This document shows, piece by piece, positions 4,800 to 45,942 of a DNA stretch of 64,000 nt. Below the pieces are notes generated by a model that worked only from the letters and a program-made list of their open reading frames with translations, had not been told where the DNA came from and did not search any database. Position 1 is the first letter of the stretch. Every line of letters starts with the position of its first letter. Position numbers and translations under genes: made by a program. The DNA comes from an uncultured Planctomycetales bacterium (GTDB lineage Bacteria; Omnitrophota; Gorgyraeia; Zapsychrales; JAHFFX01), in assembly GCA_964464475.1 (NCBI GenBank), contig CAYXGG010000005.1:33143-97142 (forward strand). Reading direction: 5' to 3'.

Positions 4800-5615
4800 A
4801 TGAAAAATACTGTTTCTTTGATTGTAATCGTTGCGGTGGCTATTGCCATCGGCGTGGCGTTGGCGGTTCAGCTAAATCAGGCACCCATGGTGGCCCAACA
4901 GCTGGGTATGATCATTGAATCGCAAGCGAAGATTGATCAAAAAATGACTTCTATTGAAGAGCAGCAGAAAAAAATGTTGGAAATTTTTGAAAGTGCCAAA
5001 AAGTCCGCTGAGCGCTTTGCTCAGCAAGGAGGAGCGGGTGGTCAGCAAGCCCAGCGACAAATGCCACCGCCGGAAGATTTGAATAAAGTTTATGATATTC
5101 CCGTTGGGGCTTCTTATATACGCGGTAACCCCGAAGCAAAAGTTACTATCGTTCAGTTTACGGATATCCAGTGCCCATTCTGTCAAAGATTTTACACACC
5201 CATTTTGGAAGTGCTTAAAGCTTATCCTAATGACGTAAAGTTTATCGTTAAGAATTTTCCATTGAGTTTTCATCCCAGCGCCCGACCGGCTGCGAAAGCC
5301 GCGTTGGCTGCCGGTGAGCAGGGTAAGTATTGGGAAATGATGGATTTGTTGTTAGAGGCGGGTCAGCAGTTGACCGATGAGAATTATAAGACATTGGCTG
5401 GGAAAATAGGGATCAGTGTGGAGCAATTTACCGCTGATTTAAAGAATAATGACGCGAAGTACGAAAAAATCATTAATGATGATTTGCAGCTTGGGTCTTC
5501 GGTGGATGTTCGTGGAACCCCCGCCTTCTATTTGAATGGCAAGAAAACCAACGCACGTGAATTTTCCATGTATAAACAGGAAATTGACGCAATTTTGGGG
5601 AAAGCCGGCCAATAA
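4800..5615 (+). CDS. DsbA-family thiol:disulfide oxidoreductase, membrane-anchored with a thioredoxin fold
   Basis: N-terminal TM/signal anchor. CPFC active-site motif in FTDIQCPFCQRF. cis-Pro region VRGTPAFYLNG. Confidence 0.75.
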   Translation: MKNTVSLIVIVAVAIAIGVALAVQLNQAPMVAQQLGMIIESQAKIDQKMTSIEEQQKKMLEIFESAKKSAERFAQQGGAGGQQAQRQMPPPEDLNKVYDIPVGASYIRGNPEAKVTIVQFTDIQCPFCQRFYTPILEVLKAYPNDVKFIVKNFPLSFHPSARPAAKAALAAGEQGKYWEMMDLLLEAGQQLTDENYKTLAGKIGISVEQFTADLKNNDAKYEKIINDDLQLGSSVDVRGTPAFYLNGKKTNAREFSMYKQEIDAILGKAGQ

Positions 5616-5999: not shown

Positions 6000-7832
6000 A
6001 TGTGCGGTATCATCGGATACGTTGGTCATAAGCAAGCGGTTCCGATTCTCATCGAGGGCCTGAAAAAGCTTGAGTACCGAGGATATGACTCCAGCGGCGT
6101 TGGAGTCATATCTTTAGGTCAGGCCAAGATCGATGTGCGCAAAATGGAAGGCAAAATTCATAATCTGCAGGAATTAATCAAAACTCATTCCTTGCCGGAC
6201 GCCACGATCGGCATTTCGCATACCCGCTGGGCCACTCACGGGGTTCCCAATCGCGTTAATTCCCATCCTCATGGAGACAGCCAAGGAAAGATTTTGGTTG
6301 TGCATAACGGCATTATTGAGAATTATCAAGAACTACGTTCGTATTTGGAGAATAAAGGGGTTAAGTTCCTTTCCCAAACGGACACAGAAGTTGTGCCGCA
6401 TTTGATTGCTGCTTTTTACCAGGGAGATTTCCTGGCTGCCGTCCTGAAAGCGATTCAGCAGCTAAAGGGAGCTTTTGCTTTGGGGATCATTCACCGTGAC
6501 CATCCGGATACATTGATCGCAGCGCGCGTGGGCTCACCGTTAATTATCGGTATTGGAAAGGATGAGAATTTTATCGCGTCGGATGTCCCGGCCATTTTGG
6601 ATAAAACCAAGAAGGTCATTTATCTTAAAGATAATCAGTTGGCCGTCATCTCTCGTAAAGCGGTTAAAGTCTATGCTTTTACGGGGAAGGCTGTGCCGGC
6701 TAAAGTAGACACGGTTTCCTTTACCGTCGGATCGGTTCACAAAGATGGTTATCCGCACTTCATGCTCAAAGAAATTCATGAGCAGCCCAAAGTTTTGAAT
6801 CACATGTTTTCCAACCGGATGAAGGGCAACAATATTCATCTTGAGGGTTTAAATCTTAAAGAAGCGGACATTAAGAAAATTAAGCAAATTATGGTTGTGG
6901 GTTGTGGAACGGCTTACCACGCGGGGATGGTCGGGAAGTATATTATTGAACGCTTGGCGCGCTTGCCGGTTTTGACGGATGTTTCCAGTGAGTTTCGTTA
7001 TCGCGATCCGATTATTGATAAATCTACGTTGATTTTGGCGATTAGTCAAAGCGGGGAGACCGCGGATACCCTGGCGGCGGTCAAAGAGGCCAAAGCGATG
7101 GGTGCCAAAGTCATCTCAATTTGTAATGTGATGGGATCATCGCTAGCGCGGGAATCACACGGCATTCTGTATACGCATGCGGGTCCGGAAATGGGCGTGG
7201 CTTCTACGAAAGCTTATACCGCTCAGTTGGCGATGTTATATTTACTGGCCATCAAATTAGCGGCGATGCGTAAGGTTTTTTCGCGAGGACATTTGCAGAA
7301 GATTATTAAGGATCTCAAACATATCCCGGCTTTGTATCAGCAAATTTTACATCATACGCACACCATTTCTAAGATTGGCCATGATAACGCGCATTTTGGG
7401 TGCTTCTTATTTTTGGGGCGGAATATTAATTATCCTTCTGCTCTCGAGGGGGCCTTGAAATTAAAAGAGATTTCGTATATTCCCGCAGAGGGTTATGCCG
7501 CTGGAGAAATGAAGCATGGACCAATCGCGCTCATTGATGAGTATCGAGCCGTGGTCTGTATCGCTCCGCAATCGGAAACTTATGAGAAGATGGTTTCCAA
7601 CATGCAAGAAATCAAATCCCGCAAAGGGAATATCATCGCTATTGCTACCGAAGGTGATGCTGAAATCAAGAATCATTCCCACCACGTTATTTATATTCCG
7701 AAGACTAACCCCATATTGACTCCATTGTTGGTGGCGTTGCCTTTACAATTGATCGCGTACGCCATTTCCACTAAACGTGGTTGTGATGTTGATCAACCTC
7801 GTAATTTAGCCAAATCGGTCACGGTTGAATAA
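6000..7832 (+). CDS. glmS: Glutamine--fructose-6-phosphate aminotransferase (isomerizing)
   Basis: MCGIIGYVGH Ntn-amidotransferase N-terminus. Two SIS domains. C-terminal ...GCDVDQPRNLAKSVTVE. 610 aa. Confidence 0.95.
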   Translation: MCGIIGYVGHKQAVPILIEGLKKLEYRGYDSSGVGVISLGQAKIDVRKMEGKIHNLQELIKTHSLPDATIGISHTRWATHGVPNRVNSHPHGDSQGKILVVHNGIIENYQELRSYLENKGVKFLSQTDTEVVPHLIAAFYQGDFLAAVLKAIQQLKGAFALGIIHRDHPDTLIAARVGSPLIIGIGKDENFIASDVPAILDKTKKVIYLKDNQLAVISRKAVKVYAFTGKAVPAKVDTVSFTVGSVHKDGYPHFMLKEIHEQPKVLNHMFSNRMKGNNIHLEGLNLKEADIKKIKQIMVVGCGTAYHAGMVGKYIIERLARLPVLTDVSSEFRYRDPIIDKSTLILAISQSGETADTLAAVKEAKAMGAKVISICNVMGSSLARESHGILYTHAGPEMGVASTKAYTAQLAMLYLLAIKLAAMRKVFSRGHLQKIIKDLKHIPALYQQILHHTHTISKIGHDNAHFGCFLFLGRNINYPSALEGALKLKEISYIPAEGYAAGEMKHGPIALIDEYRAVVCIAPQSETYEKMVSNMQEIKSRKGNIIAIATEGDAEIKNHSHHVIYIPKTNPILTPLLVALPLQLIAYAISTKRGCDVDQPRNLAKSVTVE

Positions 7833-8044: not shown

Positions 8045-8731
8045 ATGCTTTACATTGTCTCCACTCCTATCGGTAATTTAAAAGACATTACGCTTCGCGC
8101 GTTGGAAGTCCTAAAAGACGTCGACCTTATCGCTGCCGAAGATACCCGCCACACTAAAAATCTTCTCAATCATTATTCCATTACGACTCCGCTGACCAGT
8201 TATTTTGAACATAATCAGGTTAAGAAATCCGATTATTTGCTTTCTTTATTACAAGAAGGAAAGAATATTGCGCTGGTGACGGACGCGGGCACTCCCGGCA
8301 TTAGTGACCCGGGTTTTTTGCTGATTCGTTTGGCGAAAGCTAATCAGATCCCGGTGACTGTTGTTCCTGGACCCACGGCGTGTATCGCCGCTTTGTCCCT
8401 CTCTGGCCTGCCTGCGCATGATTTTGTTTTTGAAGGTTTTCTACCGGTGAAATCTGCCGCGCGGCAGAAAAAATTGTTATCTCTTAAAGACGAGTTACGT
8501 ACAATTATTTTTTATGAGTCGCCGCATCGCTTGGTTAAGGCGCTAAAAGACATGGAAGTTGTTTGGGGTAACCCTGCGGTGACGGTCATTCGGGAGTTGA
8601 CCAAAAAGTTTGAAGAGGTTTTAGAAGGTGAAGCAAGTCAGCTTGTGGAATTTTTCTTAAAGAAGCCCCCGAAGGGTGAATTCGTGATTCTGGTTAATTT
8701 TTCTAACGGCAAAAGAGCTCTTCAGGAATAA
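8045..8731 (+). CDS. rsmI: 16S rRNA (cytidine1402-2'-O)-methyltransferase
   Basis: MLYIVSTPIGNLKDITLRALEVLKDVDLIAAEDTRHTKNLL is the tetrapyrrole-methylase-fold RsmI signature. Confidence 0.85.
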   Translation: MLYIVSTPIGNLKDITLRALEVLKDVDLIAAEDTRHTKNLLNHYSITTPLTSYFEHNQVKKSDYLLSLLQEGKNIALVTDAGTPGISDPGFLLIRLAKANQIPVTVVPGPTACIAALSLSGLPAHDFVFEGFLPVKSAARQKKLLSLKDELRTIIFYESPHRLVKALKDMEVVWGNPAVTVIRELTKKFEEVLEGEASQLVEFFLKKPPKGEFVILVNFSNGKRALQE

Positions 8732-8884: not shown

Positions 8885-9832
8885 TCAATAAGTTTTCTTG
8901 TCATTCGAGGGAGCAGTAAAGAGGGCTGCTTCGAGAGAAGCGCTTTTGGCGAGGAATCGACTGGATAGTGATTTTAGAGATAGTCGAATTCGATGTAAGC
9001 GCTGCTCACTGACAAAAAATACGTACCAGGTCAGCATCTGAGTTGAGAAGAAAATCAGTTTCTCCATAAAAAGAACGACTAAGCCCTGAAACGAAATTCC
9101 AAAGAAGATTCCCACCGGCCGCAAATACCGAATGCAGAACAAAATTGGGGCTGCTATTTCAAAAGTTAACGCCAAATATTGCAGTAAACTCCAAACCCCC
9201 AAGGGCAAAATGTCGAGGCATTGGGCGGCCAAATCAGTCATATAAAGGCCCTGCACGTGGCTCCATAAAACGTTGGGATTCTTTAGCCAGTCTCCCCGAA
9301 AAGCTTTCGCGTATCCCGCAAAAAAATAATGAAGAATTAAGGTCATTTGGAAAATTCTGACCGGCCAGATGGCTTGAGGGCGGGGTTCGGTGGAATGGAA
9401 TGACCAATAGGCATCATGTTTGGTAAAGAGCATTAACGTCATGGAGAGAGCAAAGAATTTATTGAGCGTGTAGGCGCTAAAAACATCCACATGATTGATG
9501 TATAAAACGCATGCCCAAAGCAAGGGGCAGGTGATTCGGGTGTAAAGTCCTAATGTCCAGGCTATGAGGCTTCCAAAGAAAAGAAAGCCGAAAAACGGCA
9601 GCCAGTCCGGCGGGAGGGCGGGCCATACTGGAATAGCAAGCAGTGCTTTTCCAGAAATGTGAAAGCTTTGTGTTGTCAGCCACTCCGTACTGTTCTGCCA
9701 CCAGACAATAAAGTAACTGAACATTGCCAAGCCGCTCAGAACTCGGTAGGTACACAATGCTATGGGGTCATGCAGTGCGAAAAAGAATTTGTATAGACGC
9801 CGCGATTGGTGGATAAAGAATTTTAAAATCAT
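8885..9832 (-). CDS. HTTM-domain-like polytopic membrane protein. This is the third HTTM paralogue in the block.
   Basis: N-terminus FFALHDPIALCTYRVLSGLAMFSYFIVWWQN resembles the HTTM start (L/F-DP-x-x-L-x-x-F/Y-R-x-x-x-G-x-x-M). About 8 TM segments. It overlaps the upstream gene by 4 nt. Confidence 0.45.
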   Translation of the reverse strand: MILKFFIHQSRRLYKFFFALHDPIALCTYRVLSGLAMFSYFIVWWQNSTEWLTTQSFHISGKALLAIPVWPALPPDWLPFFGFLFFGSLIAWTLGLYTRITCPLLWACVLYINHVDVFSAYTLNKFFALSMTLMLFTKHDAYWSFHSTEPRPQAIWPVRIFQMTLILHYFFAGYAKAFRGDWLKNPNVLWSHVQGLYMTDLAAQCLDILPLGVWSLLQYLALTFEIAAPILFCIRYLRPVGIFFGISFQGLVVLFMEKLIFFSTQMLTWYVFFVSEQRLHRIRLSLKSLSSRFLAKSASLEAALFTAPSNDKKTY

Positions 9833-10368
9833 GATTTTGGGGGAGTAAGGTAAGAAGAAATATACAAAACGTAGTATTGCTCAGGATTAAATTTTTCTAT
9901 CGGTTCATTTTCCCAATGCTTTTTGAAGCCATTCATTTTAAGATTCCGGTTTATTTGTAAGAATCGGACCGCGATGGGCTGTGGAGCGCGCGGATTCTTT
10001 TGCCGATAATTTTCTTTTAACCAGAGGGCCAGTTCAAAATGGGCGCGTTTATTGCCGCGATTGTTAAAAATCTCAAAATAGCGATTAAGACGATTGCGAT
10101 ATCCGAAAGGCCGCATTTTAAAATCTTCCTGTTGGTTATAGGTTATCCAGGGGCCATCAGGGAGGAATTGAAACTGGATAAAATACTGCGGCCAGGAACC
10201 AACTGAGTTGGTAAAAAGCGCAGAGCAGTTGTAGAGATTATTCAGGATAGGTGGCGAGTGAGGAAAAAATTTCCCGGTTAGTCCCATATAGGAGAAGGGA
10301 ATGACCCAAACAAATAAAAAAAGCGCGCAGCCAAAATAGTCCAGCTTGCTAGGCGAGGGCGTTTTCAT
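9829..10368 (-). CDS. Hypothetical N-terminally anchored protein, co-transcribed with the HTTM-like gene
   Basis: 179-aa ORF with an N-terminal TM helix, FGCALFLFVWVIPFSYMGL. No known motif. Translationally coupled to 8885-9832. Confidence 0.4.
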   Translation of the reverse strand: MKTPSPSKLDYFGCALFLFVWVIPFSYMGLTGKFFPHSPPILNNLYNCSALFTNSVGSWPQYFIQFQFLPDGPWITYNQQEDFKMRPFGYRNRLNRYFEIFNNRGNKRAHFELALWLKENYRQKNPRAPQPIAVRFLQINRNLKMNGFKKHWENEPIEKFNPEQYYVLYISSYLTPPKS

Positions 10369-10482: not shown

Positions 10483-11130
10483 CTATGGTCCGTAGGTAAT
10501 GAAATTCCAAGAGGCCGTTCCGGAGCCATCAGAAGTAAGAACTTTTCCTGAGGCTGGAGCGCCTCCACGAATACTGATTTGTCCATTTACGTCCAGTTTG
10601 GTGGCCGGATTCGTAGAGCCAATACCGACGTTACCGGTAGTAATTATCGTGTCGCCTCTTAATGTCGATGTCCCATTAACATCTAGTTTGGTGGCCGGGT
10701 TCGTAGATCCGATCCCAACGTTACCGGTGACAAGGGCATTGCTGCGAATATTGGCAGAGCCATTCACATCTAATTTGGCTCCAGGAGTAACGGTTCCAAT
10801 CGCCACATTCCAAGCCGTATTGTTAGGGTAAAGGTCGGTCCCGGATTGGGTCCAGGCGGAGGACAAGGTGCTGCCTGTCCAGGAGCTGGTGCTTCCACAA
10901 ACTTCTATCTGATAATTATCATTGCGAACATAAAATGTTCCCGGAGTGCAGGCGCCGGATTTTGCGGCTTGAGGAACCAGCAGCAATTCACTATAAGCGC
11001 CAATAGGGGAAGGATAATATGTCGTAAGCGATAATGTTTCTGCGGAAGCTTTAAAGCAATACCCTAAGGTGAAGACGATAACGCCGATAGTGATAATGTG
11101 GTTGGAAGAATTTCTCCTGAAGTGATCCAT
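10483..11130 (-). CDS. Secreted protein with tail-fibre-like beta-repeats (NVGIGSTNPATKLDVNG, three copies)
   Basis: Signal peptide MDHFRRNSSNHIITIGVIVFTLGYCFKASA from the ATG at 11130. Repeated G-N-V-G-I-G-S-T-N-P-x-x-K-L-D-V-N-G units as seen in phage tail-fibre and collar proteins. The longer ORF, open to 11265, overlaps the upstream gene. Confidence 0.55.
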   Translation of the reverse strand: MDHFRRNSSNHIITIGVIVFTLGYCFKASAETLSLTTYYPSPIGAYSELLLVPQAAKSGACTPGTFYVRNDNYQIEVCGSTSSWTGSTLSSAWTQSGTDLYPNNTAWNVAIGTVTPGAKLDVNGSANIRSNALVTGNVGIGSTNPATKLDVNGTSTLRGDTIITTGNVGIGSTNPATKLDVNGQISIRGGAPASGKVLTSDGSGTASWNFITYGP

Positions 11131-11255
11131 GAAAGGTTCAAAAGTATTTCTTAACATAGATTTAGTATATTTTATTTTTGCTGATAGAGCAACTAACCAG
11201 TTTAAAAATGAGAAATATTTGAAATAAGGCATTGCTTGTTGCTCCCCAAAAGGTT

Positions 11256-13670
11256 TTATAGGCATGGTGGATTGAGGGCTCCATAAGAATTACAGGCGCA
11301 TTCGGGTGGATCTGAGGGCCCTCCGGTGCAACTACCACTATTCCAACTGATGCATCCATAGACACAAGCAGGAAGTGCTTCGTCCACCTCATCGACTTCA
11401 TCAACGGGAGGTGTGACTGTTGGTGGCGTTACGGTCGGCGGCGATACCGTGGGTGGTGTGATCGTTGGCAACCCTTCATCTACCTCATCGACTTCATCAA
11501 CGGGAGGTGTGACTGTTGGTGGCGTTACGGTCGGCGGCGATACCGTGGGTGGTGTGACGGTAGGCGCTCCTTCGTCCACCTCGTCGACCTCATCAACGGG
11601 AGGTGTGACCGTTGGTGGCGTTACGGTCGGCGGCGATACCGTAGGTGGTGTGACGGTAGGCGCTCCTTCGTCCACCTCGTCGACCTCATCAACGGGAGGT
11701 GTGACCGTTGGTGGCGTTACGGTCGGCGGCGATACCGTAGGTGGTGTGACGGTAGGCGCTCCTTCGTCCACCTCATCAACGGCCACGCCGTTACATTCAA
11801 TACAGATTGAACAGACAGGTGTAATGCAGGCCCCGCCCATTTGGCACATAAATCCTCCCGGGTCAATAGAGCAAAAAGGGTTGGGAGAACCGTCACTAAT
11901 GACATTGTTATAAGTTTTGCAGCCTCCTTGAGAACTGCAGTCTAAGGAGGAAGGGCATCCTGTTCCGCAACTCGCGCTAGGTGATGGTGCCGCAACGGTT
12001 GGGGGCGTGACTGTTGGGGGCGTGGCTGTTGGGGGTGTCACGGTCGGTGGTGTTACTGTTGGAGGTGGAGTTACGGTTGGGGGGGTCACTGTGGGAAAGC
12101 AATTACCGCAATCTTCAGGTGCAGTATTGCAATCCTCGCCTCCTCCACAACATCCATCTCCCGGTGTTGAACTCGAGCAATCCGCTGGACAATTACAAAC
12201 ATTTTCGCCAACTTGACAGGTTCCATTAGGACAAGAGGTTCCTGATTGACAGCAATTGGATACAGGATAAAACCAAGTTCCTCCGATACAAATGGCCGAA
12301 CAGGCGGAGGTTCCATTAGAGGTAGTACCACTGGGACAACCGAGTACTTGAGGAAAACACATATCTGCCCCGCACCCAGGCATTTGAGCGGAATCCGCAG
12401 TACAGTCTTGTAGACAGTTTGAACAATCTTCCCCCGCACCACAAGTACCGTCGCCACAGTTTACTCCGCAGGCCGGCATGGGGCAGGCCTGGCTTGAGGG
12501 GCCGGCGCAATCGGTGCCTCCGCAGGCGGGCGTGGGATTGGTGCACGTACGTGTCTGAATACCGTCCTGGCCACATAATCCCGTACAAGTACTCCAAGCG
12601 CTCCAGCCTCCATTAACCGCAGGGGTACAGCAGTCTCCTGGACAGCTGACGGCATTTTCCGAAGCGCAGCAATAACCGTCGCCGCAGTTAGGGCAGCCAC
12701 TCACGCAAGTAACACTAGGATTGAAAGGATTGGGCGGAGAACAGGTTCCAGAGCATCCAAATAAAGCGCAAGAGACACAGGAACAGGTCGAATAATCCAA
12801 AAATGATCCATTCGGACAAGAATTTGTACAATAACAGGATGGACCAAAAGGCGTATCATTACACCCGGTTTGGGGTGCCGGACACGTATGTAAGGTGCAG
12901 GTTGTTGAGGGACAAAGAGTTGGCGGACAGTTTGCGAGATTACAAACAGTTATGTTGTTGCCCGGGCAATCGGTCGGCGCATTAGTGCAGTTTTCGCATG
13001 GAGTGTCACAAAAACCATCACCAACATTTAGTGAGCAAGAGCAATCTGCTGGGCAGGTGGCTACTGTTTCCCCCTGAGCGGTATCGCAGAACCCATCGTT
13101 ACATTGGGTCCCACAGTCTTGCGGGCACGTCGCTGAACTTTCAGTCGCTGAACAAAAACCATCACCGCAAGGACTACTACAATCTCCGGGGCAGGAAGCT
13201 GCTGTTTCGCTTCCGTTGCAAACACCATCACCACAGCACATGGCATTTTCCAGATTGACTCTAAGTTCGTTGAGATGGATCGCTTTTACGCGCGTGGAAC
13301 TGGCAGTGATGTTGCTGTCGGTATAGCTGGGATTAGGTCGACCCAGAGGAGCATAAAAATTGTTAATTGCCGTGCGAAGTTCGTCGATATGAATTTTGCG
13401 GATTTGGGTAACGCCGGCAGTGATGGTTTCAGACCAGGGATAAGCGCTTCCTCCGCACGCCGTTCTTTTGGCATCAATTTGAGCCCGAAGCTCAACGATG
13501 TGTGAGGCCCGAATGCTGGTTGACGTGGTAATATTCTCGCTCCAGGATATGGTGTAGCTGGCGGACTGAGCGTATGAATTTTGATTTAACGACAAAAAGA
13601 AGAAAAGGGTGATGGAAAAGAATAGCGTGGTTAAGTTTTTAAGAATCGGCAGCTGTCGGCAATAATCCAT
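11256..13670 (-). CDS. Giant secreted Cys-rich modular protein. It contains a thrombospondin type-1 repeat, GDGxC...CPxDC cysteine repeats, Pro/Thr linkers and C-terminal Asp/Glu-rich tandem repeats.
   Basis: 804 aa. Signal peptide MDYCRQLPILKNLTTLFFSITLFFFLSLNQNSYAQS. WSAWSTCTGLCGQDGIQTRTCT is a TSP1 consensus. More than 100 cysteines. Four copies of VDEVDEVDEG-APTVTPPTVSPPTVTPPTVTPP at the C-terminus. Confidence 0.75.
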   Translation of the reverse strand: MDYCRQLPILKNLTTLFFSITLFFFLSLNQNSYAQSASYTISWSENITTSTSIRASHIVELRAQIDAKRTACGGSAYPWSETITAGVTQIRKIHIDELRTAINNFYAPLGRPNPSYTDSNITASSTRVKAIHLNELRVNLENAMCCGDGVCNGSETAASCPGDCSSPCGDGFCSATESSATCPQDCGTQCNDGFCDTAQGETVATCPADCSCSLNVGDGFCDTPCENCTNAPTDCPGNNITVCNLANCPPTLCPSTTCTLHTCPAPQTGCNDTPFGPSCYCTNSCPNGSFLDYSTCSCVSCALFGCSGTCSPPNPFNPSVTCVSGCPNCGDGYCCASENAVSCPGDCCTPAVNGGWSAWSTCTGLCGQDGIQTRTCTNPTPACGGTDCAGPSSQACPMPACGVNCGDGTCGAGEDCSNCLQDCTADSAQMPGCGADMCFPQVLGCPSGTTSNGTSACSAICIGGTWFYPVSNCCQSGTSCPNGTCQVGENVCNCPADCSSSTPGDGCCGGGEDCNTAPEDCGNCFPTVTPPTVTPPPTVTPPTVTPPTATPPTVTPPTVAAPSPSASCGTGCPSSLDCSSQGGCKTYNNVISDGSPNPFCSIDPGGFMCQMGGACITPVCSICIECNGVAVDEVDEGAPTVTPPTVSPPTVTPPTVTPPVDEVDEVDEGAPTVTPPTVSPPTVTPPTVTPPVDEVDEVDEGAPTVTPPTVSPPTVTPPTVTPPVDEVDEVDEGLPTITPPTVSPPTVTPPTVTPPVDEVDEVDEALPACVYGCISWNSGSCTGGPSDPPECACNSYGALNPPCL
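11380..11790. repeat. 96-bp tandem repeat array of about 4.3 copies inside the giant Cys-rich gene
   Basis: The string 'cctcatcgacttcatcaacgggaggtgtgac...' recurs at 11387, 11483, 11579 and about 11675, with a 96-bp period. It encodes the VDEVDEVDEG...TPP protein repeats. Confidence 0.85.
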
Positions 13671-13819: not shown

Positions 13820-16762
13820 TCATTGATGAAAATCAATAGTGGAGAAAATTTGAATACGGGTTTGCGCGTCCTTCCAGCAATCGTTGGGCAGCTTAGCTTT
13901 TTCGCTACACAACCGAGATAGAAAAGTTTCTTTATCCGGGATTTTAGACCAAACACTCGGTAAAAATATTCCTCGGTTTTTTCCTTTGCTGACAATAACG
14001 CCATGCCGGCGCGGTTGAATGATGGCCACATCAGAAATAACGCGAGGCGGGGTCAGAACGGAAATCTTGATTTTGCTTTTTTGAAATTCTTCTTTGGTTA
14101 AAGGAGGAAAGCGAGGGTCTTGGAAGGCGGATTCCCGGGCCATGACGGTTATTTCTTGCCAGAGGCTGCGGGTGGGGGTGGTGCTCCCTCGGCATCCGCG
14201 CAGACGACCTTCTAATTCAATCGTGACAAAAGCGCTGGCCGGCAGGTTTAAATAAGCGCTATGAGACAATGCGGCTGGGTCCAGCGGTTGATTGTCGAAT
14301 TGTTCGGTAATGGATTGGGCGGCTTGCTTAAGGAGCATTTGTTGTAATTCCGGATCATGCAGATAGCTTACGGGTTCGGGGCTCGGCGCGTCCTCTTTGA
14401 GGAAAGCGAGGGCCGCGTAGCCAACAACGCGGTTAATGTCTCCGGATGGGGCGTCTCCGGAGTTCGCGTAAGCCAGCGGGGTGACGTTAGTCGCTCCCAG
14501 TAGTTTGGCCGCGATAATTCCTGTTTGGACCGCGCCTTGGCCGCAAAGCGGGGTTTTAAGTTTATTCGCAAATTGTTTTTTTAAGAACGTGACGGTTTGA
14601 TTGACCAGACCTGCATCCATTTGTTGAATGGCGGATAGGGTGATGGGATCAATGCGCAATGCGGAGGCTTGATCCGGATAGTGAGCTAGGTCTGTTGAGA
14701 TAATAATGAGCGCGTTGTGCTTCTTGGCGACTTGGGCGATGGATTCCGCCATGAGCCGGCAAGTTTTAACATCGTCGGTACTGATCAGTAGTGGAACAAT
14801 TTTGAAATTGCTGAAACGGCGTTGCAGAAAAGGGAGTTGGGCTTCTAGCGAATGTTCTTGTTGGTGAGGCAGTGCTGAATCAACGAAAAGGGGGTTGCTG
14901 GTCAACAGTTCCTGGACGACGTCTTCGTTAACTGGGACTTTTCCTAAAGGGGTTTCAAAAAAACCCTTGGCCCAAAGCGCGCCGCCTTTAACGGGTACGC
15001 GATGAGCGGGTCCAATGAGGATAAAGGTGAGCGTGTCATTGTTCAGTTGGTGATAGCCATTGGCTGCTACTCCTCCTGAATATTGGTAAGCCGCGTGGGG
15101 AACCAGCAGCGCGACGATACTTCCGGGGAGCGTTTTTGAGGTCGACGCGTTGAGCAGTTGATCGACGGTGGAAGAAAGCGTTGCGGGGTCTCCGGGATAA
15201 AATTTATCAGCCACGGCGGCCGCTCGGATCCCGCCGCTGGGCACGATGGCTTTTGAGCTTGCAGAAGAATTGGGCTGAGAGGTTTTTTGTTTATGAGTCT
15301 TAGTGTTCTTGACGCAGGAATGTTTTAGCATTACGCGCTTGGTGTATTCCGCGACTTGTCCAGGCGGGGGGGTTTTCTTGGCCATAAAAATTAATTCCAG
15401 CGATTGCAGTCGCTGAGGTCCGGAATGGGTCGCATTCCAAGTGCGGCACAAATACTCTCCGTAATAGGGCCAGTAGTTTTTGTTTTTTCCGTAAGTATGG
15501 TTAAACAGGTAACGTCGCCAACGTTCGCTGGGGAACATCTGAGATGCGGATGGCTTAGTCCAGTCTAATTTCTTTCCGTCGCGGAATAAATCAACGGTGT
15601 TTCCATCGGCCAATTTGCCGGGAACCAGGAACCAGCCATTCGTCATGGCTGGCGGCGCGAACATGCGCCACGCCTGATTGATGTGTAAAAGATCGCAAAT
15701 GTTTTTTAATGGAGCCGGCATGCGATAGGTTTTTTGGGTAATTCGTTCGTAATTATAAAGCAGTACGCAGACCAGTGTCAGCGCCGCGGTCAAATTGGCC
15801 GCGGGGGAAGCGTGAATAGTCATGAACTTTCTGGGTAGACGTTCATAAATATGGCTGCCGGTTATGGCTGTGGTCACACGATCCCAGAGTTTAAGGCCCC
15901 CTATTTTGTCCCAGAATTCTTTGGGTAGAAAGAGAAGCAGGGCGGTGCTGCTAACCCAGGGAAACAACATTAAATGCAGGCAAAGATAAAAGCCCAAGTG
16001 CATCAATAGGAATCCAGCCACCAAAGGCGTCCGAATGTAGGCAGTTGCCCAGGGTAAAAAGAGAAGAATCGGCGCGATTAATTCAAACCAAAGCGTGGCG
16101 TGAGTGATAAAAGACAGCAAGTCAGGAAATTGTAAAAGCGTTAGCGCGAAATTTTTGGCGTAATTATCAATATTAAGTGCGTAATAAACCGCCGTGCCGT
16201 CTTGCCACATGGGCAGAGGCCACTTGTGAAGGGCGGCCATGAAATAGCCAACGGCGTTTTGAATCAACATGGCCGCCGTTCCGACGCTGAATATTTGTAT
16301 CGGAATTTCGTTTTTGTTTAAAGCGCGACTGCTATCAACAGAGAATTTGGCGCCCAACGGCAAAAATAGGCTCCAAAAAAGTAAGAGACGAAAATAATCG
16401 TCTCCGCCGCCCATAATCATCGGATTGCGACGGTGTAATGAAATCAGCAAGAGGTAGGAGAAGAAGGTCATCCAGCGAGTTTGGTACCCAAACATCAAAC
16501 CTAGCGCGCACAGTGCCTGCAAGCCCAGCAGTACGTATTGAACTTGCGGTGTTCCGTTCAACAGGTGAATTGATAGGGCCCAGGGACTGGGAGGTTGTTG
16601 AATGACAGCCATGCGGGGTAAGAGTCCTTCATCAGAGAAGTAAAGCGATACGTCCGGTAGATAATTAATCACATCGATTAAAATAATGAGTCCGATGCCG
16701 ATTCTAAAAATAGCTAGCGCGCGCGTATCAATGCCGAATAAATTTCTGAGTTTATTCATCAA
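13820..16762 (-). CDS. Tri-domain fusion. An N-terminal HTTM domain (vitamin-K-dependent gamma-carboxylase-like, with a VKGC-like C-terminal soluble region) is followed by a Memo-like domain (AmmeMemoRadiSam system protein B) and an AMMECR1 domain (AmmeMemoRadiSam system protein A).
   Basis: HTTM: FRIGIGLIILIDVINYLPDVSLYFSD...HRRNPMIMGGGDDYFRLLLFW. Memo: ALLVPHAAYQYSGGVAANGY, FILIGPAHR, QEHSLEAQLPFL, IISTDLAHYP, LCGQGAVQ, VVGYAALAF. AMMECR1: EGRLRGCRGS...QDPRFPPLTKEEF...HGVIVSKGKNRGIFLPSVW. 980 aa. Confidence 0.8.
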   Translation of the reverse strand: MMNKLRNLFGIDTRALAIFRIGIGLIILIDVINYLPDVSLYFSDEGLLPRMAVIQQPPSPWALSIHLLNGTPQVQYVLLGLQALCALGLMFGYQTRWMTFFSYLLLISLHRRNPMIMGGGDDYFRLLLFWSLFLPLGAKFSVDSSRALNKNEIPIQIFSVGTAAMLIQNAVGYFMAALHKWPLPMWQDGTAVYYALNIDNYAKNFALTLLQFPDLLSFITHATLWFELIAPILLFLPWATAYIRTPLVAGFLLMHLGFYLCLHLMLFPWVSSTALLLFLPKEFWDKIGGLKLWDRVTTAITGSHIYERLPRKFMTIHASPAANLTAALTLVCVLLYNYERITQKTYRMPAPLKNICDLLHINQAWRMFAPPAMTNGWFLVPGKLADGNTVDLFRDGKKLDWTKPSASQMFPSERWRRYLFNHTYGKNKNYWPYYGEYLCRTWNATHSGPQRLQSLELIFMAKKTPPPGQVAEYTKRVMLKHSCVKNTKTHKQKTSQPNSSASSKAIVPSGGIRAAAVADKFYPGDPATLSSTVDQLLNASTSKTLPGSIVALLVPHAAYQYSGGVAANGYHQLNNDTLTFILIGPAHRVPVKGGALWAKGFFETPLGKVPVNEDVVQELLTSNPLFVDSALPHQQEHSLEAQLPFLQRRFSNFKIVPLLISTDDVKTCRLMAESIAQVAKKHNALIIISTDLAHYPDQASALRIDPITLSAIQQMDAGLVNQTVTFLKKQFANKLKTPLCGQGAVQTGIIAAKLLGATNVTPLAYANSGDAPSGDINRVVGYAALAFLKEDAPSPEPVSYLHDPELQQMLLKQAAQSITEQFDNQPLDPAALSHSAYLNLPASAFVTIELEGRLRGCRGSTTPTRSLWQEITVMARESAFQDPRFPPLTKEEFQKSKIKISVLTPPRVISDVAIIQPRRHGVIVSKGKNRGIFLPSVWSKIPDKETFLSRLCSEKAKLPNDCWKDAQTRIQIFSTIDFHQ

Positions 16763-16766
16763 GGGT

Positions 16767-18257
16767 TTAATTCCTTTTATTTTTTTTGGTGCTGGTCGAT
16801 TCTGTGCACGATTGACTCCATAAGATTTTCTTTTGAGTGGAAGAGTCTTGTCCCGGCAGACGCGTCACTCTTTTGATGGTGACAATCTGCAGTGAAGCGA
16901 TTTGTTCGGGCGACGTATGCTTAGAATTCCAACTGCGGCATAAATAGCTCGCATAATGTTTCCACGCGCGTTCTTCATCTCGAATAAGAAAATTCATTTG
17001 AAATTTACGCCAACGTTCATTCTTGAACAGCTTGGCGGCCTCGGGTTTTTCCCAAATAAGCGAAGTGCCAGGTCGGGATGCGTCGACTTGAGTGCCGTTG
17101 TTGAGCGTGGCGGGCACCACCACCCAGCCGCTGATTTTGGAAGGATTAGGAGCAAACATTTTCCAGGCTTGGTCCAAATATAAGAATGTGCTGGCCGTGT
17201 TTAGGGCGGGGGAAAATTTTATTGTTTCTGGAACCAGTCGGGATAGGGTTAAGCCAAAGACAGCGATTAAACAGAGTGCCGCCGTCCCGTTTAGCAACGG
17301 ACTTAACTGGTATTTTGCTGAGTCGGAATTCAAGGCGGTGGGAGATTGGGATAATGCGGAGAACATCGGCAGTATTTTCTGGACTAAATGTGTTTCCCAA
17401 AACCAGGTCGGTAAAAAAAGCGTCATCGCGACAATGCTGATGGCGGGAAAAAGTTCCAAATAGAGGAGAGAATGAAAGCTCATTTGTAACACAATAAAGA
17501 TGAGGGCGGTGAACGTCCGAATTTTTTCATGCCACCAAGGGAGAAAAAGAAGAAAAGGTCCCCACAGTTCAAAATAAAGGATTGCGCGCGTCAGAACTGA
17601 CATGAGGTCGGGGTAATGTAGCAGCCATTCCGCTTGTGGGCGCGCGTAAAGCTCGACGTTGAACGCATAGTATAGGGCGCTTCCGTCATGCCAGGTTTCG
17701 CCCTTCCATTTATGGAGCGCTGTAAAAATATAAACGATAGCAGTTTGTAGCAGCGCGGCGGTTGTCGCCCAGTTAAAAATGCGGGAGGGCCGCTCTATGT
17801 TGTATTTGGACCGTAAGTTATCGAGAGAGAGCCGAATTCCCAACGGTAAAAAAAGACTCCAGAAAAGCATCATCCTTAAATAGTTATCCGCTCCTCCCAG
17901 AATGAGTGGGTTACGTCGCTGGAGAGAGGCTAATAGGATCCAGGATAAGAACGTCATCAGGCCGGTGCGATATCCGACCAGGAGCCCGATGGCGCACAAA
18001 GCTTGCAATAAAAATAGAATGCTTTGGACTTCCACTGTTCCGTTTAGCAGATGCCAGGACATGATTCCCGTGGAAGAGTTTCGCTCCAGAAGGGCTGCAC
18101 GTGGGAGCACTCCGTTATCGGTGTAAAACGCGGTAATGTCTCCGGCGCGAATGGCAAGGTCCCACAAAAGTACGATCGCTAGGCCACATCGAAATAGCAC
18201 TAAAGATCGAACATCAATACCGAATACCCTAGCGAAAAGAGAGGGCTTGTTTTCCAT
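16767..18257 (-). CDS. HTTM-domain protein (vitamin-K-dependent gamma-carboxylase-like). Paralogue of the N-terminal half of 13820-16762.
   Basis: FRCGLAIVLLWDLAIRAGDITAFYTDNGVLP...QRRNPLILGGADNYLRMMLFWSLFLPLG. The C-terminal region shares QAWKMFAP...GW.VVP...ERWRKF...YLCRSWN with the neighbouring gene. The genes are 4 nt apart, consistent with an operon. Confidence 0.8.
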   Translation of the reverse strand: MENKPSLFARVFGIDVRSLVLFRCGLAIVLLWDLAIRAGDITAFYTDNGVLPRAALLERNSSTGIMSWHLLNGTVEVQSILFLLQALCAIGLLVGYRTGLMTFLSWILLASLQRRNPLILGGADNYLRMMLFWSLFLPLGIRLSLDNLRSKYNIERPSRIFNWATTAALLQTAIVYIFTALHKWKGETWHDGSALYYAFNVELYARPQAEWLLHYPDLMSVLTRAILYFELWGPFLLFLPWWHEKIRTFTALIFIVLQMSFHSLLYLELFPAISIVAMTLFLPTWFWETHLVQKILPMFSALSQSPTALNSDSAKYQLSPLLNGTAALCLIAVFGLTLSRLVPETIKFSPALNTASTFLYLDQAWKMFAPNPSKISGWVVVPATLNNGTQVDASRPGTSLIWEKPEAAKLFKNERWRKFQMNFLIRDEERAWKHYASYLCRSWNSKHTSPEQIASLQIVTIKRVTRLPGQDSSTQKKILWSQSCTESTSTKKNKRN

Positions 18258-18481: not shown

Positions 18482-19139
<658 letters not shown>

Positions 19140-32100: not shown

Positions 32101-33729
32101 TTAATTCAGAAAATTACGACGTTTCAGAATTACCGTGCCATGATTCCACGCCCAGCCGGGTTCGTTTTGCCAGTCTCCGAATTGCGCGACGGGCGCGAAG
32201 TTGTCTTCCAAATATTTCCCAATCAACGGACAGTAGGTCTTTCCTAGGACTCCCAGTCCCGGTTCTTGGGTCGCGTTCATGCGGCTGGAGGCGAGGACCC
32301 AATTCACTTTATTCTTTTCTAATTCCGAGATAACGCTACGTTCTTGTTCCGGAGGGATTTTGATATGATCAAAAAAGATCAACTGACGGGTGGGGGTTTT
32401 TTTGCCGGTCAAATAGTAATAGAGGCAGTCGTAGGGCAGAGCGAAAAATAATTCATCACGGGTGAGATTCTTTTGTAAATAATCTGTGGTCAGGTTGACC
32501 GTCTGGGCCCAGCTGGGATGGTTGGTGGTGTAAATCTGCAGCCGAGAGTTTGTAAGGAATTGCTGCGGATTTCTTATTTTGGCTAATTCGTTTAAATTGG
32601 CCTGGTGGTTGTTGATGACGACGGACAAGGCACCTACCAAAAGGGCTCCAGCAATCCAGCGGGGTAAATTAATGACTGCAAAAGCGATTAACGAAACGAT
32701 CAAGGTTAATTGAAAGGGTTTGATCCAAAAATGGCGATAGAAGACGCCACTAACCAGGAATTCGTGAAAGTTTAAGATAATGAGAAGGACCAGCCCTCCT
32801 AAAAAAAGACCGAAGGTGCGTTTGGTTGTCGATGGAGTTTTGATGGTGGTTAATTGATAGATGCTCTGAATGATTGCCAACACTAACAGGACGGCCGTGA
32901 TTTTGTTGGTCAAGGTAAAGAGAATGTTTTGTTTGGTGAAGTCCGCGAACATGGACAGCGCTTGCCAAGGGGTGACGCTGTAGGGCTGGTCGCCCTTGAC
33001 GTAAGGGAAGCATTGACGGATTTCCATGATGCTTAAGCCGCGCACGCACCAAATGTAAATAGCCGCAGTGCAAGCTAATAAAGCGAAGCCGCCGATAAAA
33101 AGCGGGGGCAACCATTCTTTAATGGGGCGGCGGTGAACGAGGTTGGTAACGATGACCATGGCCCCGAAGCCCGCGAGGGTCGCCAGGCCGATGTTGATTT
33201 TAACGAGCCCAAGAAGAAAAATCGCTCCTAATCCGGCCCAAATGAAGGCCCCACGCTGCGTGAGGATATGTTGGGTCAGGCAATAAAGGGTGGCCGCCAA
33301 CAACGTGATCCCGGCGGCATTGTTATATGTATAAAAGAAATCGGGATTAAAAGCCCAAAACCATAAGCTGCCAATAAGACCCAGCCACGGAGAGCGCAGT
33401 GCGGTCAGCGTTAGGAAAATAAATATTCCGGAACAAAGATTAAAAAACATCTTCACCAGTAAAACATTTTTGATGCTAATTCCCAGAACACTTAACACCG
33501 GCGCGTAAATGTAAGGCATCAAGGGGCCGTAGACCCACCAATAATCAAGGTAGGGGCGCTGGCCGTGCGCGGTTTGTTCAAAAGCGTAAAGGTCCCGTCC
33601 ATGGTCACCTTGAGAAAGCATCGCTTGGAAATCTAAAAAAGGGGACAAGATAATGGCGCCGCCAACGAGTGAAGCCGTTAGGCACAGCCAAAACCAAAAT
33701 TGTGGGAGGTGATCGTTAGGTTTGTTCAA
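32101..33729 (-). CDS. Large polytopic membrane protein, putatively a GT-C-fold glycosyltransferase, with a C-terminal periplasmic domain
   Basis: 542 aa. About 12 predicted TM helices followed by a soluble C-terminal domain of about 150 aa. No catalytic motif can be called by eye. Confidence 0.45.
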   Translation of the reverse strand: MNKPNDHLPQFWFWLCLTASLVGGAIILSPFLDFQAMLSQGDHGRDLYAFEQTAHGQRPYLDYWWVYGPLMPYIYAPVLSVLGISIKNVLLVKMFFNLCSGIFIFLTLTALRSPWLGLIGSLWFWAFNPDFFYTYNNAAGITLLAATLYCLTQHILTQRGAFIWAGLGAIFLLGLVKINIGLATLAGFGAMVIVTNLVHRRPIKEWLPPLFIGGFALLACTAAIYIWCVRGLSIMEIRQCFPYVKGDQPYSVTPWQALSMFADFTKQNILFTLTNKITAVLLVLAIIQSIYQLTTIKTPSTTKRTFGLFLGGLVLLIILNFHEFLVSGVFYRHFWIKPFQLTLIVSLIAFAVINLPRWIAGALLVGALSVVINNHQANLNELAKIRNPQQFLTNSRLQIYTTNHPSWAQTVNLTTDYLQKNLTRDELFFALPYDCLYYYLTGKKTPTRQLIFFDHIKIPPEQERSVISELEKNKVNWVLASSRMNATQEPGLGVLGKTYCPLIGKYLEDNFAPVAQFGDWQNEPGWAWNHGTVILKRRNFLN

Positions 33730-33860: not shown

Positions 33861-35546
33861 TTGATCATGGGCCCACGATTTAAATATTTCCTGACTTTCT
33901 TTTTTATTTTGCTGCTAAACCTTTCCGTGTATTTTCCTGCTTTTTTTCAAATGGCCCGGGCCGATCAGCTGGTGTATTTGACGGAAGTGGCTGACCAATA
34001 CGAATTTGGTGAATTATTTCAGAACACCTATTCTTATAACCGCACGCGTCATTATAACCAGGGCGACGAATTGGGGTTTCGGCCGATATTGTTCGCGTTA
34101 TTGGCCTTTCAAAAAAGTTATTTTGGTTACAATTTTGTGCTTTGGCAGCTGGTCGGGTTTGTGTTGCACGCGCTGCTGTTGGCGCAGCTGCTGCGCTTGC
34201 TTAATTTTATCCGTTGGGATTTCCTGGGGGCTTTACTGGTGGCCAACTTTTCCGTGTTGACCATTGCTTCCGAAATGGTCAGCTGGCACCACATTCACGC
34301 GTACATTTTATTTTTGGTGTTAGTGCTGGAGGCGTTGTTGCAAGTGGCGCGATTCTTCCATCCGCCTACGCCTGAAACCACGGCTTTAGCCGTGGGGCTC
34401 CATGATCCGGTCCGGGACGAAAAAAGATTGGGCCTAGCGCTTATTTGGTTGACGTTGGCCTGTTACATTCAGGAATTTGGAGTTATTACGTGCGTGGTGC
34501 TGGGGATTTTTACGCTGTATTGGGGGAAGAAAAATAAATCCCCTACTGCTTGGCGGGACGCTCTAATTTTTGTGGTGCCGGTCGCGAGCTACGTTATCAT
34601 CAGCCTAGCGGACTATTGCTTGCGGAATATTGTTCCTCGTACTTTAGGTGCGATTGACTTAAAGTTCATGCTGATGAACTTGCCGGTCATTATGTTTACC
34701 TATCTACGCGGCGCGTTATTGCCTTGCTGGACCACCATTTATCCCGAAGAGCGCGCGAGCATTGATCCTTTTTCGTTGACGGTCACCTGGCAGAGCATCC
34801 AATGGGACAATTGGCTGCATCAGTTAAACCTGTTACTGGTCGTACTGTTTGCTTTAGGGTTACTGTCAGTGATCGTGAATTTCTTTTGGCGGCGGTTCCG
34901 TCCGGTGGTGCAGACAGATGTTGCTTCAAATCATGACTCGCGGTTTTGGTCCATCTTTTCCTGGCTGTGTTTGGCTCTAGCCGGGCTTTACATGGCGTTG
35001 GTCATGATGGGGCGATTAACGACGCAGGAGATGGATTATATTTATTTGAGTTTGTATCAATTTTACATGGTCGGGGCCTTTCTGGTTGTTGCCATCTATG
35101 CCGAGCTGGCCGCTCATCATCCACGTTTATTTTCGGGACGGTCGTTTTTGCGATGGGGTGTCATTTTGTTTTTGGTCGTATCTATTCTGGTCAACGCCGT
35201 GCAGACCTATACCCAAAATCGATTACGTATGAAACTCGAATCCGGAGCGCTGGCCATGGTGAAGACACTCGAACGATTTGTGCAGGAGCATCGTCGAGAA
35301 ACAGATTTTTCATTCTGGATGGTGGGGGCTGAACATGATTTAATAACGGGTATGTTTGAAGGGCATTCGTGGGACGGGAATCTTTGGGTGGGTTCGGTTT
35401 CTAACTTTTTATTCCGTCCGTACGTCCGGACGGAAAACGCCAAGTATTACTTAGTGTATTCCACTAAAGAGGGATTGGTGGTGTTTCGGGATTTAACCGC
35501 AGCAGAATACTTCTTAGAACAACTGCAAGAGAGCACGCATGACTGA
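33861..35546 (+). CDS. Polytopic membrane protein, paralogue A of a tandem pair (GT-C-like, function unknown)
   Basis: 561 aa. Conserved N-terminus with its neighbour: YFPAFFQMARADQLVYLTEVADQYEFGELFQNTYSYNRTRHYNQGDELGFRP. Confidence 0.6.
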   Translation: MIMGPRFKYFLTFFFILLLNLSVYFPAFFQMARADQLVYLTEVADQYEFGELFQNTYSYNRTRHYNQGDELGFRPILFALLAFQKSYFGYNFVLWQLVGFVLHALLLAQLLRLLNFIRWDFLGALLVANFSVLTIASEMVSWHHIHAYILFLVLVLEALLQVARFFHPPTPETTALAVGLHDPVRDEKRLGLALIWLTLACYIQEFGVITCVVLGIFTLYWGKKNKSPTAWRDALIFVVPVASYVIISLADYCLRNIVPRTLGAIDLKFMLMNLPVIMFTYLRGALLPCWTTIYPEERASIDPFSLTVTWQSIQWDNWLHQLNLLLVVLFALGLLSVIVNFFWRRFRPVVQTDVASNHDSRFWSIFSWLCLALAGLYMALVMMGRLTTQEMDYIYLSLYQFYMVGAFLVVAIYAELAAHHPRLFSGRSFLRWGVILFLVVSILVNAVQTYTQNRLRMKLESGALAMVKTLERFVQEHRRETDFSFWMVGAEHDLITGMFEGHSWDGNLWVGSVSNFLFRPYVRTENAKYYLVYSTKEGLVVFRDLTAAEYFLEQLQESTHD

Positions 35547-45844: not shown

Positions 45845-45942
45845 ATAGTACAAAATTGCGGCGACAGACTGAAGAACGAATATTATGATGAAGGTCTTCA
45901 ATTTGTTCAGTCGTGTCGCTATGTTCAATCCATGAGGCAATC

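Follow-up and report, generated by a model that had tools for sequence, protein, structure and literature searches.

The stretch of DNA analysed here, 64,000 nucleotides of contig CAYXGG010000005.1 (the window in what follows, to whose first letter all positions refer unless another locus is named), carries two adjacent minus-strand genes for membrane proteins of the HTTM type, the type of the gamma-glutamyl carboxylase that depends on vitamin K (VKGC). The protein called A below consists of a membrane domain and a soluble domain. Its neighbour B has the same two domains and continues into a Memo and an AMMECR1 domain. Conservation of both these families extends from archaea to humans (MEMO1 and AMMECR1 in the latter), and both are linked to disease; to our knowledge, no biochemical function has been agreed upon for either. 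The fusion is real and very rare. The tandem pair lies beside a gene for a secreted protein with acidic (VDE)n tracts, and the conservation of this neighbourhood, which was missed in the preliminary description of the locus, is the most informative result. The two genes and the parts of B are the following:

16767-18257, minus strand: HTTM paralogue A, 496 amino acids; VKGC-type membrane domain and family-specific C-terminal domain, no further fusion.
13820-16759, minus strand: HTTM paralogue B fused to Memo and AMMECR1; 979 amino acids from the ATG at 16759, 980 from a TTG at 16762.
15740-16759, minus strand: VKGC-type (HTTM) transmembrane domain of B, residues 1-340; the codon of K179, equivalent of the catalytic lysine, is at 16223-16225.
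15290-15739, minus strand: family-specific alpha/beta domain of B, residues 341-490, predicted periplasmic; motifs QAWRMFAP, ERWRRY and YLCRTWN.
14408-15220, minus strand: Memo domain of B, AmmeMemoSam_B type, residues 515-785; PF01875, E 5.7e-56; TIGR04336, 245.6 bits.
13838-14329, minus strand: AMMECR1 domain of B, AmmeMemoSam_A type, residues 812-975; PF01871, E 4e-43; TIGR04335, 162.8 bits; motifs LRGCRGS and DPRFPP.

The tandem HTTM proteins and their modules

A and B are 42% identical across about 490 residues, and are indeed paralogues, as had been proposed. The gap between them amounts to the 4 nucleotides given earlier if B starts at the TTG, and to 7 if it starts at the ATG; an NCBI protein identical to B (P0001) has 979 residues. 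The presence of in-frame Memo and AMMECR1 domains in one continuous open reading frame is confirmed by both Pfam and NCBIfam, the scores of B lying above the NCBIfam cut-offs of 26 bits for TIGR04336 and 99 bits for TIGR04335. The AMMECR1 domain also matches the Protein Data Bank (PDB) entries 1vaj and 1wsc. Of the three Pfam families expected in B, PF01875 and PF01871 were thus recovered, and PF05090 (HTTM) was not recovered directly.

One trivial explanation would be an assembly chimera, or a frameshift uniting two separate genes, and the GC content is slightly raised over 14001-16000 (0.513 versus about 0.46 elsewhere). However, full-length homologues with all modules occur in unrelated assemblies, namely P0002 (946 residues, 52% identity to B, Logan SRR22388043), P0003 (990 residues, 49%, SRR30312860) and P0213 (1003 residues, 44%, found in NCBI GCA_023247755.1 and in an ENA assembly), and the fragment P0226 also crosses the HTTM/Memo junction. 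Since independent assemblies share the architecture, with 44-52% identity across the junction, the artefact is effectively refuted. The survey for such fusions that had been suggested returned very few: when 1.84 billion cluster representatives were scanned exhaustively with HMMER, more than 15,000 proteins matched a single module at E<=1e-10 and the HTTM-Memo-AMMECR1 architecture turned up in about 3-4 clusters; the fusion is known from about 4-5 sequences. The rarity concerns the N-terminal HTTM addition, whereas the pairing of Memo with AMMECR1, which had also been thought novel, is common (more than 1000 proteins). The body formed by the HTTM and C-terminal domains accepts other attachments as well: P0004 and P0005 (676 residues) carry AMMECR1 alone, and P0006 (681 residues) has a TPR domain where the others carry Memo-AMMECR1.

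Pfam searches with A and with the N-terminal 509 residues of B gave no PF05090 match, even at E<=10, and HTTM membership is therefore argued through the family profile, an orthologue and the fold. L001_490, the orthologue of A in a related locus, reaches 35.2 bits for PF05090 (cut-off 27.7), and many homologues carry this domain. The family profile (A6, 108 homologues) retrieved human VKGC as its sole match among PDB sequences (E 4e-5); NCBIfam searches of the window paralogues gave a weak match to SdpB (TIGR04033, 1e-7). The AlphaFold model of residues 1-509 of B has a predicted local distance difference test score (pLDDT) of 93.1 and a predicted template modelling score (pTM) of 0.91, and its helices are positioned as in human VKGC; the N-terminal domain, as modelled, is of the VKGC transmembrane fold. 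In the human enzyme, Lys218, Trp223 and Asp263 make up the quinol-deprotonation site and Phe299 belongs to the CO2 pocket (PMC12647623, PMC13486548). The equivalents in B are K179, W185, E226 and F266. All four are invariant in a seven-sequence alignment (A1) that includes paralogue A, where they can be read directly from the sequence, and K179, E226 and F266 are nearly invariant across the 108 homologues. The human enzyme stays active when its aspartate is replaced by glutamate (D263E; PMC13486548). The proposed kinship with VKGC therefore holds, with the quinol-deprotonating lysine kept in both paralogues. Judging from the alignments, conservation covers the quinol-activating half-site and does not extend to the substrate site of the human enzyme.

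The situation is different for the soluble domain that follows. Residues 341-490 of B are strongly conserved across the 108 homologues and give a confident AlphaFold model (pLDDT 89.7). A profile of this domain matched no VKGC sequence and had no significant PDB match by sequence or by fold; an hhalign comparison with an approximate human lumenal segment aligned just 10 columns, all of them in the transmembrane helix that precedes the domain. The domain resembles the VKGC lumenal domain in position only, and the earlier description of a VKGC-like C-terminal region is not supported, no similarity being detectable by sequence or fold. Human VKGC crosses the membrane with nine helices; its N-terminus is cytoplasmic and its C-terminal part lumenal (PMC12647623). 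The alignment of the 108-homologue family profile extends into the last transmembrane helix of the human protein, beyond which the human chain is lumenal; in B, the loop preceding this helix (residues 279-315) contains 7 Lys/Arg, and hydropathy analysis shows no hydrophobic segment after residue 340. Homology of the last helix, together with the positive-inside rule, would place the C-terminal domain and all that follows it in the periplasm, and the whole Memo-AMMECR1 module is thus predicted to be periplasmic.

Aligned by phmmer to the PDB entry 3bcz, the Memo domain of B keeps the equivalents of MEMO1 H49, H81, D189 and H192, in the motifs PHAAY, GPAH and TDLAH. MEMO1 Cys244 falls outside this alignment, and an LCGQG motif is present in B on direct reading. 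The AMMECR1 motifs LRGC.G and DPRF are intact in B, P0002 and P0003. Free-standing Memo-AMMECR1 proteins (the more than 1000 mentioned above) have about 470-530 residues, and many are labelled 'AmmeMemoRadiSam system protein B/A', after a three-gene system with a radical S-adenosylmethionine (SAM) enzyme. A signal-like hydrophobic N-terminus was found in 82 of the 120 closest ones (P0093-P0212), compared with 0 of 120 cytoplasmic PurH controls, and several of the 120 bear lipoboxes. Nearly all of the best-ranked matches (39-43% identity) bear a signal, and the lower-ranked ones without a signal peptide resemble the ordinary cytoplasmic form. These signal-like N-termini suggest, independently of the helix topology and in agreement with it, that the module in B derives from an exported clade, which appears to have been annotated under the name of the cytoplasmic three-gene system; if exported, this clade could not have a radical SAM enzyme of the cytoplasm as its partner.

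The only protein with a CxxxCxxC motif in the window is a radical SAM enzyme of the KamA family (56935-58161; TIGR00238, 344 bits), and the partner radical SAM enzyme, TIGR04337, has no match within these 64 kb. The preliminary description was right in noting this, but the absence is not a distinctive trait of the fusion: no radical SAM neighbour was found at two loci of free-standing relatives either, and the closest relatives are mostly exported.

The secreted (VDE)n protein and the conserved neighbourhood

Downstream of B on the minus strand lie the following features:

11256-13670, minus strand: secreted protein of 804 amino acids, rich in Cys, Pro and Thr, candidate substrate; signal peptide and C-terminal [TVTPP...VDEVDEVDEG] repeats.
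11378-11777, minus strand: 96-bp tandem repeat, 4.2 copies with 95% identity (Tandem Repeats Finder), encoding the TVTPP/VDE units.
10483-11265, minus strand: membrane-anchored or secreted repeat protein of 260 amino acids; TTYYPSP motif and AKLDVNG repeats.
9829-10368, minus strand: protein of 179 amino acids with one N-terminal transmembrane helix (hydropathy), overlapping the next gene by 4 nucleotides.
8885-9832, minus strand: third, distant HTTM protein, 315 amino acids, membrane core only; PF05090, E 2.9e-8, 34.1 bits.

These neighbours are those of the minus-strand operon previously outlined, with its two secreted repeat proteins and third HTTM-like gene. The 804-residue protein contains 87 Cys and 103 Pro, and 78 Asp+Glu versus 15 Lys+Arg. 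Its five VDE tracts comprise four VDEVDEVDE and one VDEVDE, and the three-unit tracts sit within 32-residue TVTPP…VDEVDEVDEG units. Near its N-terminus (residues 53-137) are three (I/V)(R/K)xxH(I/L)xELR motifs, shared with the corresponding protein of locus L005 (L005_511); this HxxELR module could be a docking element for modifying enzymes.

The tandem A-B arrangement is conserved between loci, and a gene for a secreted (VDE)n protein adjoins the pair in four out of four loci with enough flanking sequence: the window, L001, L005/L006 and L008. In L001, which encodes P0002, two long (VDE)n runs form the end of the gene that stands two places upstream of the pair. In L005/L006, which encodes P0006, the partner is a Cys-rich protein of 511 residues that has the same N-terminal motifs as the one in the window and ends in (VDE)8. 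In L008, which encodes P0213, it is an uncalled Cys- and Pro-rich open reading frame with the end '…VDEVDEVDEIDE'. The partners are Cys-rich in all four loci and Pro-rich in two. The Cys-rich body has strongly diverged, and what the four have in common is the acidic (VDE)n tract, which was seen in none of the other fetched loci that were scanned. When genomes and metagenomes were scanned with the family alignment, each gave only 2 loci, mostly short or distant, so that the neighbourhood statistics rest on a handful of related loci.

In three of these loci, a further secreted protein of about 375 residues, which is absent from the window, is encoded between HTTM-A and the (VDE)n gene:

L001 461-1588, L005 3303-4427 and L008 1750-2889: conserved secreted protein of about 375 amino acids; motifs CHAYLKFD, HYINAHLHPHGESIELRD and DHDIDAMA.

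Its identification as a PHM/DBH copper monooxygenase was considered and rejected, since Pfam, NCBIfam and PDB sequence searches all came back empty. The recurrent neighbours also include a PMT_2-like polytopic protein in L008, to which a polytopic protein of 552 residues in L002 is likened by position only; the latter, used as a query (L002_552), had no match in the window.

The loci differ in their wider surroundings. Around the pair with the TPR variant in L005 (1-1331 and 8118-15034) are genes judged pilin-like by their N-termini, together with PilM, PilO, secretin and type II secretion ATPase genes, a type IV pilus-like setting in which the (VDE)n partner may be a pilus- or surface-associated adhesin. 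In L008 (JAHFFX010000027.1, 9304-15685), the fusion gene is followed by genes for a phosphodiesterase, an arylsulfotransferase and CysN/CysD-like proteins for the synthesis of 3'-phosphoadenosine-5'-phosphosulfate, which hint at further modifications of secreted proteins. TP_methylase and GlmS genes come after these sulfation genes, and the same two flank the operon of the window (8045-8731 and 6000-7832). More distant HTTM genes with the family-specific C-terminal domain are found beside other secreted, low-complexity proteins too: a protein of more than 3117 residues with 14% Asp+Glu in L003 (4132-13482, from an Omnitrophota metagenome-assembled genome), a Thr/Ser-rich lipoprotein in L004 (169-1746), and, in L017 (8362-9864), a (GTTS)n protein after which come di-haem oxidoreductase (DHOR) genes. 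P0030 is an exception, with a FemAB/carrier-protein context.

As for the smaller genes of the operon, the 260-residue protein has a relative in L005 (tblastn with L005_111, E 2e-8). The third HTTM protein aligns with the family profile (hhalign E 0.0017), the lysine included. The 179-residue protein matched neither Pfam or NCBIfam families, among them DUF5819, nor the C-terminal-domain profile. A promoter and terminator scan of the window performed no better than on shuffled sequence.

Several side observations can be added. The 804-residue protein contains a thrombospondin-like WSxWS motif (WSAWSTC) at residue 356, and L002_531 has several WSxWS-type repeats. A membrane-anchored protein of the DsbA/Thioredoxin_4 type is encoded at 4800-5615 (plus strand), 3 kb from the operon, and may be relevant to the folding of the protein with 87 Cys. 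Just upstream of a phosphoribosyltransferase-family gene (possibly pyrR), at 18547-18579 (plus strand), there is a perfect hairpin of 15 bp with a T-run after it, and carbamoyltransferase and amidohydrolase genes (pyrB/pyrC-like) also lie downstream; the hairpin may be a pyrimidine attenuator. A protein of 953 residues (45913-48774, plus strand) combines a Peptidase_M1 domain (aminopeptidase N-like, residues 348-508) with a C-terminal Omp85/BamA-type barrel (745-936), an unusual fusion of a peptidase with an outer-membrane barrel. Three apparently polytopic proteins of about 550 residues (32101-33729, minus strand; 33861-35546 and 35539-37221, plus strand) have no Pfam or NCBIfam match; the latter two, in tandem, have similar N-termini and may be paralogues.

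Proposed function and its alternatives

The reading that we favour, with a probability of about 0.4, is that A and B carry out a periplasmic, quinol-driven modification of the (VDE)n protein, with Memo-AMMECR1 as an accessory; the modification would probably be a carboxylation, a point held more tentatively than the model as a whole. B would be an inner-membrane protein of three modules: a nine-helix HTTM domain, a periplasmic family-specific domain and a periplasmic Memo-AMMECR1 module. A and B would act together, on the periplasmic side of the membrane, upon the secreted Cys/Pro/Thr-rich protein that is encoded with them. VKGC chemistry requires O2. In the proposed scheme, menaquinol and O2 would generate a strong base, with the epoxide as a by-product, and with this base Glu and/or Asp residues of the (VDE)n tract would be carboxylated, by analogy with VKGC for Glu and with the Streptomyces enzyme MloH for Asp. 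The resulting poly-carboxylated tail could bind Ca2+ or other metals. The sister proteins with AMMECR1 alone or with TPR suggest that Memo-AMMECR1 is an exchangeable accessory; it would either dock the substrate or run a second metal or redox step on the substrate or the quinone, and would do so without a radical SAM enzyme. The quinone- and O2-dependent modification module with a Memo/AMMECR1 accessory that had been put forward at the outset remains a reasonable reading. A bolder form of the same idea is improbable in our view: the locus would be the first natural bacterial vitamin K-type protein carboxylation system, turning the (VDE)n tail of a secreted adhesin-like protein into a poly-gamma-carboxy-Glu (or carboxy-Asp) tail with affinity for calcium or mineral, and Memo-AMMECR1 would handle the quinone, for example in the resolution or recycling of the epoxide.

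Several observations weigh against the favoured model. The human Glu-binding residues N159 and H160 align to the Gly-Gly of the GGxD motif in B, and past the last transmembrane helix neither the Tyr395 region, nor the conserved 374-418 segment that VKGC requires for carboxylation, nor its lumenal propeptide-binding domain has a detectable counterpart; carboxylase activity, over and above that of an epoxidase, is therefore only presumed. The lineages of the four (VDE)n loci are related, so that the association may partly be inherited synteny, and the partner in L017 has no acidic tract, which means that the HTTM family with this C-terminal domain is not confined to substrates with Glu/Asp. In P0213, the near-invariant cysteine of AMMECR1 is lost (LRGYAGS). 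The periplasmic placement of Memo-AMMECR1 itself derives from the positive-inside rule and from homology. Among the window ORFs (open reading frames) scanned, neither menaquinone nor VKOR genes came to light. Finally, AMMECR1 strongly marks anaerobic organisms (PMC13386939), while the chemistry of VKGC needs O2.

The most serious competitor, doubtful but by no means implausible, is an epoxidase or redox module without carboxylation, in which the oxidation of menaquinol would be coupled, through the metal site of a periplasmic Memo domain and through AMMECR1, to another reaction; the oxidative folding of the 87-Cys protein and the modification of a lipid or quinone are candidates. The Leptospira VKGC orthologue was reportedly proposed by Rishavy and colleagues in 2005 to oxidise quinol without carboxylating. 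The retention of the residues that deprotonate reduced vitamin K (KH2), but not of N159/H160, speaks for this alternative, as do the metal ligands kept by Memo, the abundance of Cys in the partner protein and the DsbA-like gene at 4800-5615. HTTM is, moreover, a recurrent fusion partner of redox modules: a DCC thiol-oxidoreductase domain (PF04134) is present in many homologues, and giant viruses have VKGC-like epoxidase-desaturase fusions (PMC13486548), for which quinol oxidation alone is likewise proposed. On the other hand, the equivalent of the CO2-stacking Phe299 is conserved, the TPR and AMMECR1-only variants show that a redox accessory is dispensable, and the feature kept in all four partners is the acidic (VDE)n tract, not the strongly diverging Cys-rich body.

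The same variants bear on a reading of Memo-AMMECR1 as a non-catalytic docking or chaperone domain that holds the substrate or a partner in the manner of a TPR. P0006 has TPR at the very same position, P0004 and P0005 make do with AMMECR1, and P0213 has replaced the near-invariant cysteine; human Memo, according to a description attributed to Qiu and colleagues in 2008, has a vestigial active site in which it binds a peptide. This reading is compatible with the favoured model, but we find it rather unlikely, because B, P0002 and P0003 keep all mappable Memo metal ligands together with the AMMECR1 motifs LRGC.G and DPRF, a pattern that suggests selection for catalysis. A canonical AmmeMemoRadiSam system brought to the membrane, with a cytoplasmic Memo-AMMECR1 module and a TIGR04337 enzyme encoded elsewhere in the genome, seems very improbable. 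TIGR04336 and TIGR04335 do score above their cut-offs, and the partner could lie outside the 64 kb searched; yet no TIGR04337 gene is present in the window, the two loci of relatives have no radical SAM neighbour either, the topology based on homology sets the C-terminus outside the cell, and the nearest free-standing relatives are signal-peptide proteins.

Coming back to the modification of the (VDE)n protein, its interest is that one polypeptide joins two puzzles, the function of Memo and AMMECR1 and the substrate of bacterial VKGC homologues, for which we know of no protein substrate. In its bolder form, the model would, if true, give Memo and AMMECR1 their first biochemical role, independent of any radical SAM enzyme. 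The points that deserve follow-up are the candidate protein substrate and the exported Memo-AMMECR1 clade. The (VDE)n tail is a concrete candidate substrate, and even a negative carboxylation result would narrow the roles of HTTM enzymes encoded beside secreted repeat proteins. An exported clade, for its part, could not depend on the radical SAM partner that names the system.

Relation to known systems

In the literature searched, no publication connects either Memo or AMMECR1 to HTTM, VKGC or GGCX. The closest counterparts of the C-terminal half of B are the free-standing Memo-AMMECR1 proteins, which are 36-43% identical to it over the whole 470-residue module and agree with it in motifs and in the order of the domains; they carry a signal peptide or a lipobox where the window protein has an HTTM membrane enzyme instead.

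For the N-terminal half, the reference is human VKGC (PDB 9bum, 9wf3 and 9l20), to which the window protein is about 15-17% identical. The window enzyme has neither Asn159/His160 nor a detectable propeptide-binding lumenal domain, and unlike human VKGC it occurs as a tandem pair of paralogues, one copy of which carries Memo-AMMECR1. Among bacterial enzymes, PMC12647623, PMC12186529 and bioRxiv 2026.08.19.745780 cite MloH, a VKGC orthologue from Streptomyces by which an aspartyl residue is carboxylated during the biosynthesis of malonomycin; it is the sole characterised bacterial enzyme cited in PMC12647623 and PMC12186529, and it acts on a small molecule. As described there, MloH is likewise of the VKGC type and of bacterial origin, has an extracytoplasmic domain fused to it, and shows that bacterial members are able to carboxylate acidic residues. 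Compared by this description only, it differs in acting on a polyketide synthase-nonribosomal peptide synthetase (PKS-NRPS) intermediate, and in having neither Memo/AMMECR1 nor a tandem paralogue.

Other HTTM fusions are known, namely DCC-HTTM proteins with DUF5819 partners (bioRxiv 2026.08.19.745780) and the epoxidase-desaturases of giant viruses (PMC13486548), in which an HTTM core is likewise fused to, or paired with, an accessory redox module. The gene pair at 8885-10368 (minus strand), a 179-residue protein followed by the 315-residue HTTM core, has the same layout as the two-gene DUF5819+HTTM systems, but its 179-residue protein does not match DUF5819. In the fusion itself, the accessory is not DCC but Memo-AMMECR1, predicted to lie on the periplasmic side. 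The architecture is new, and it is built from known parts.

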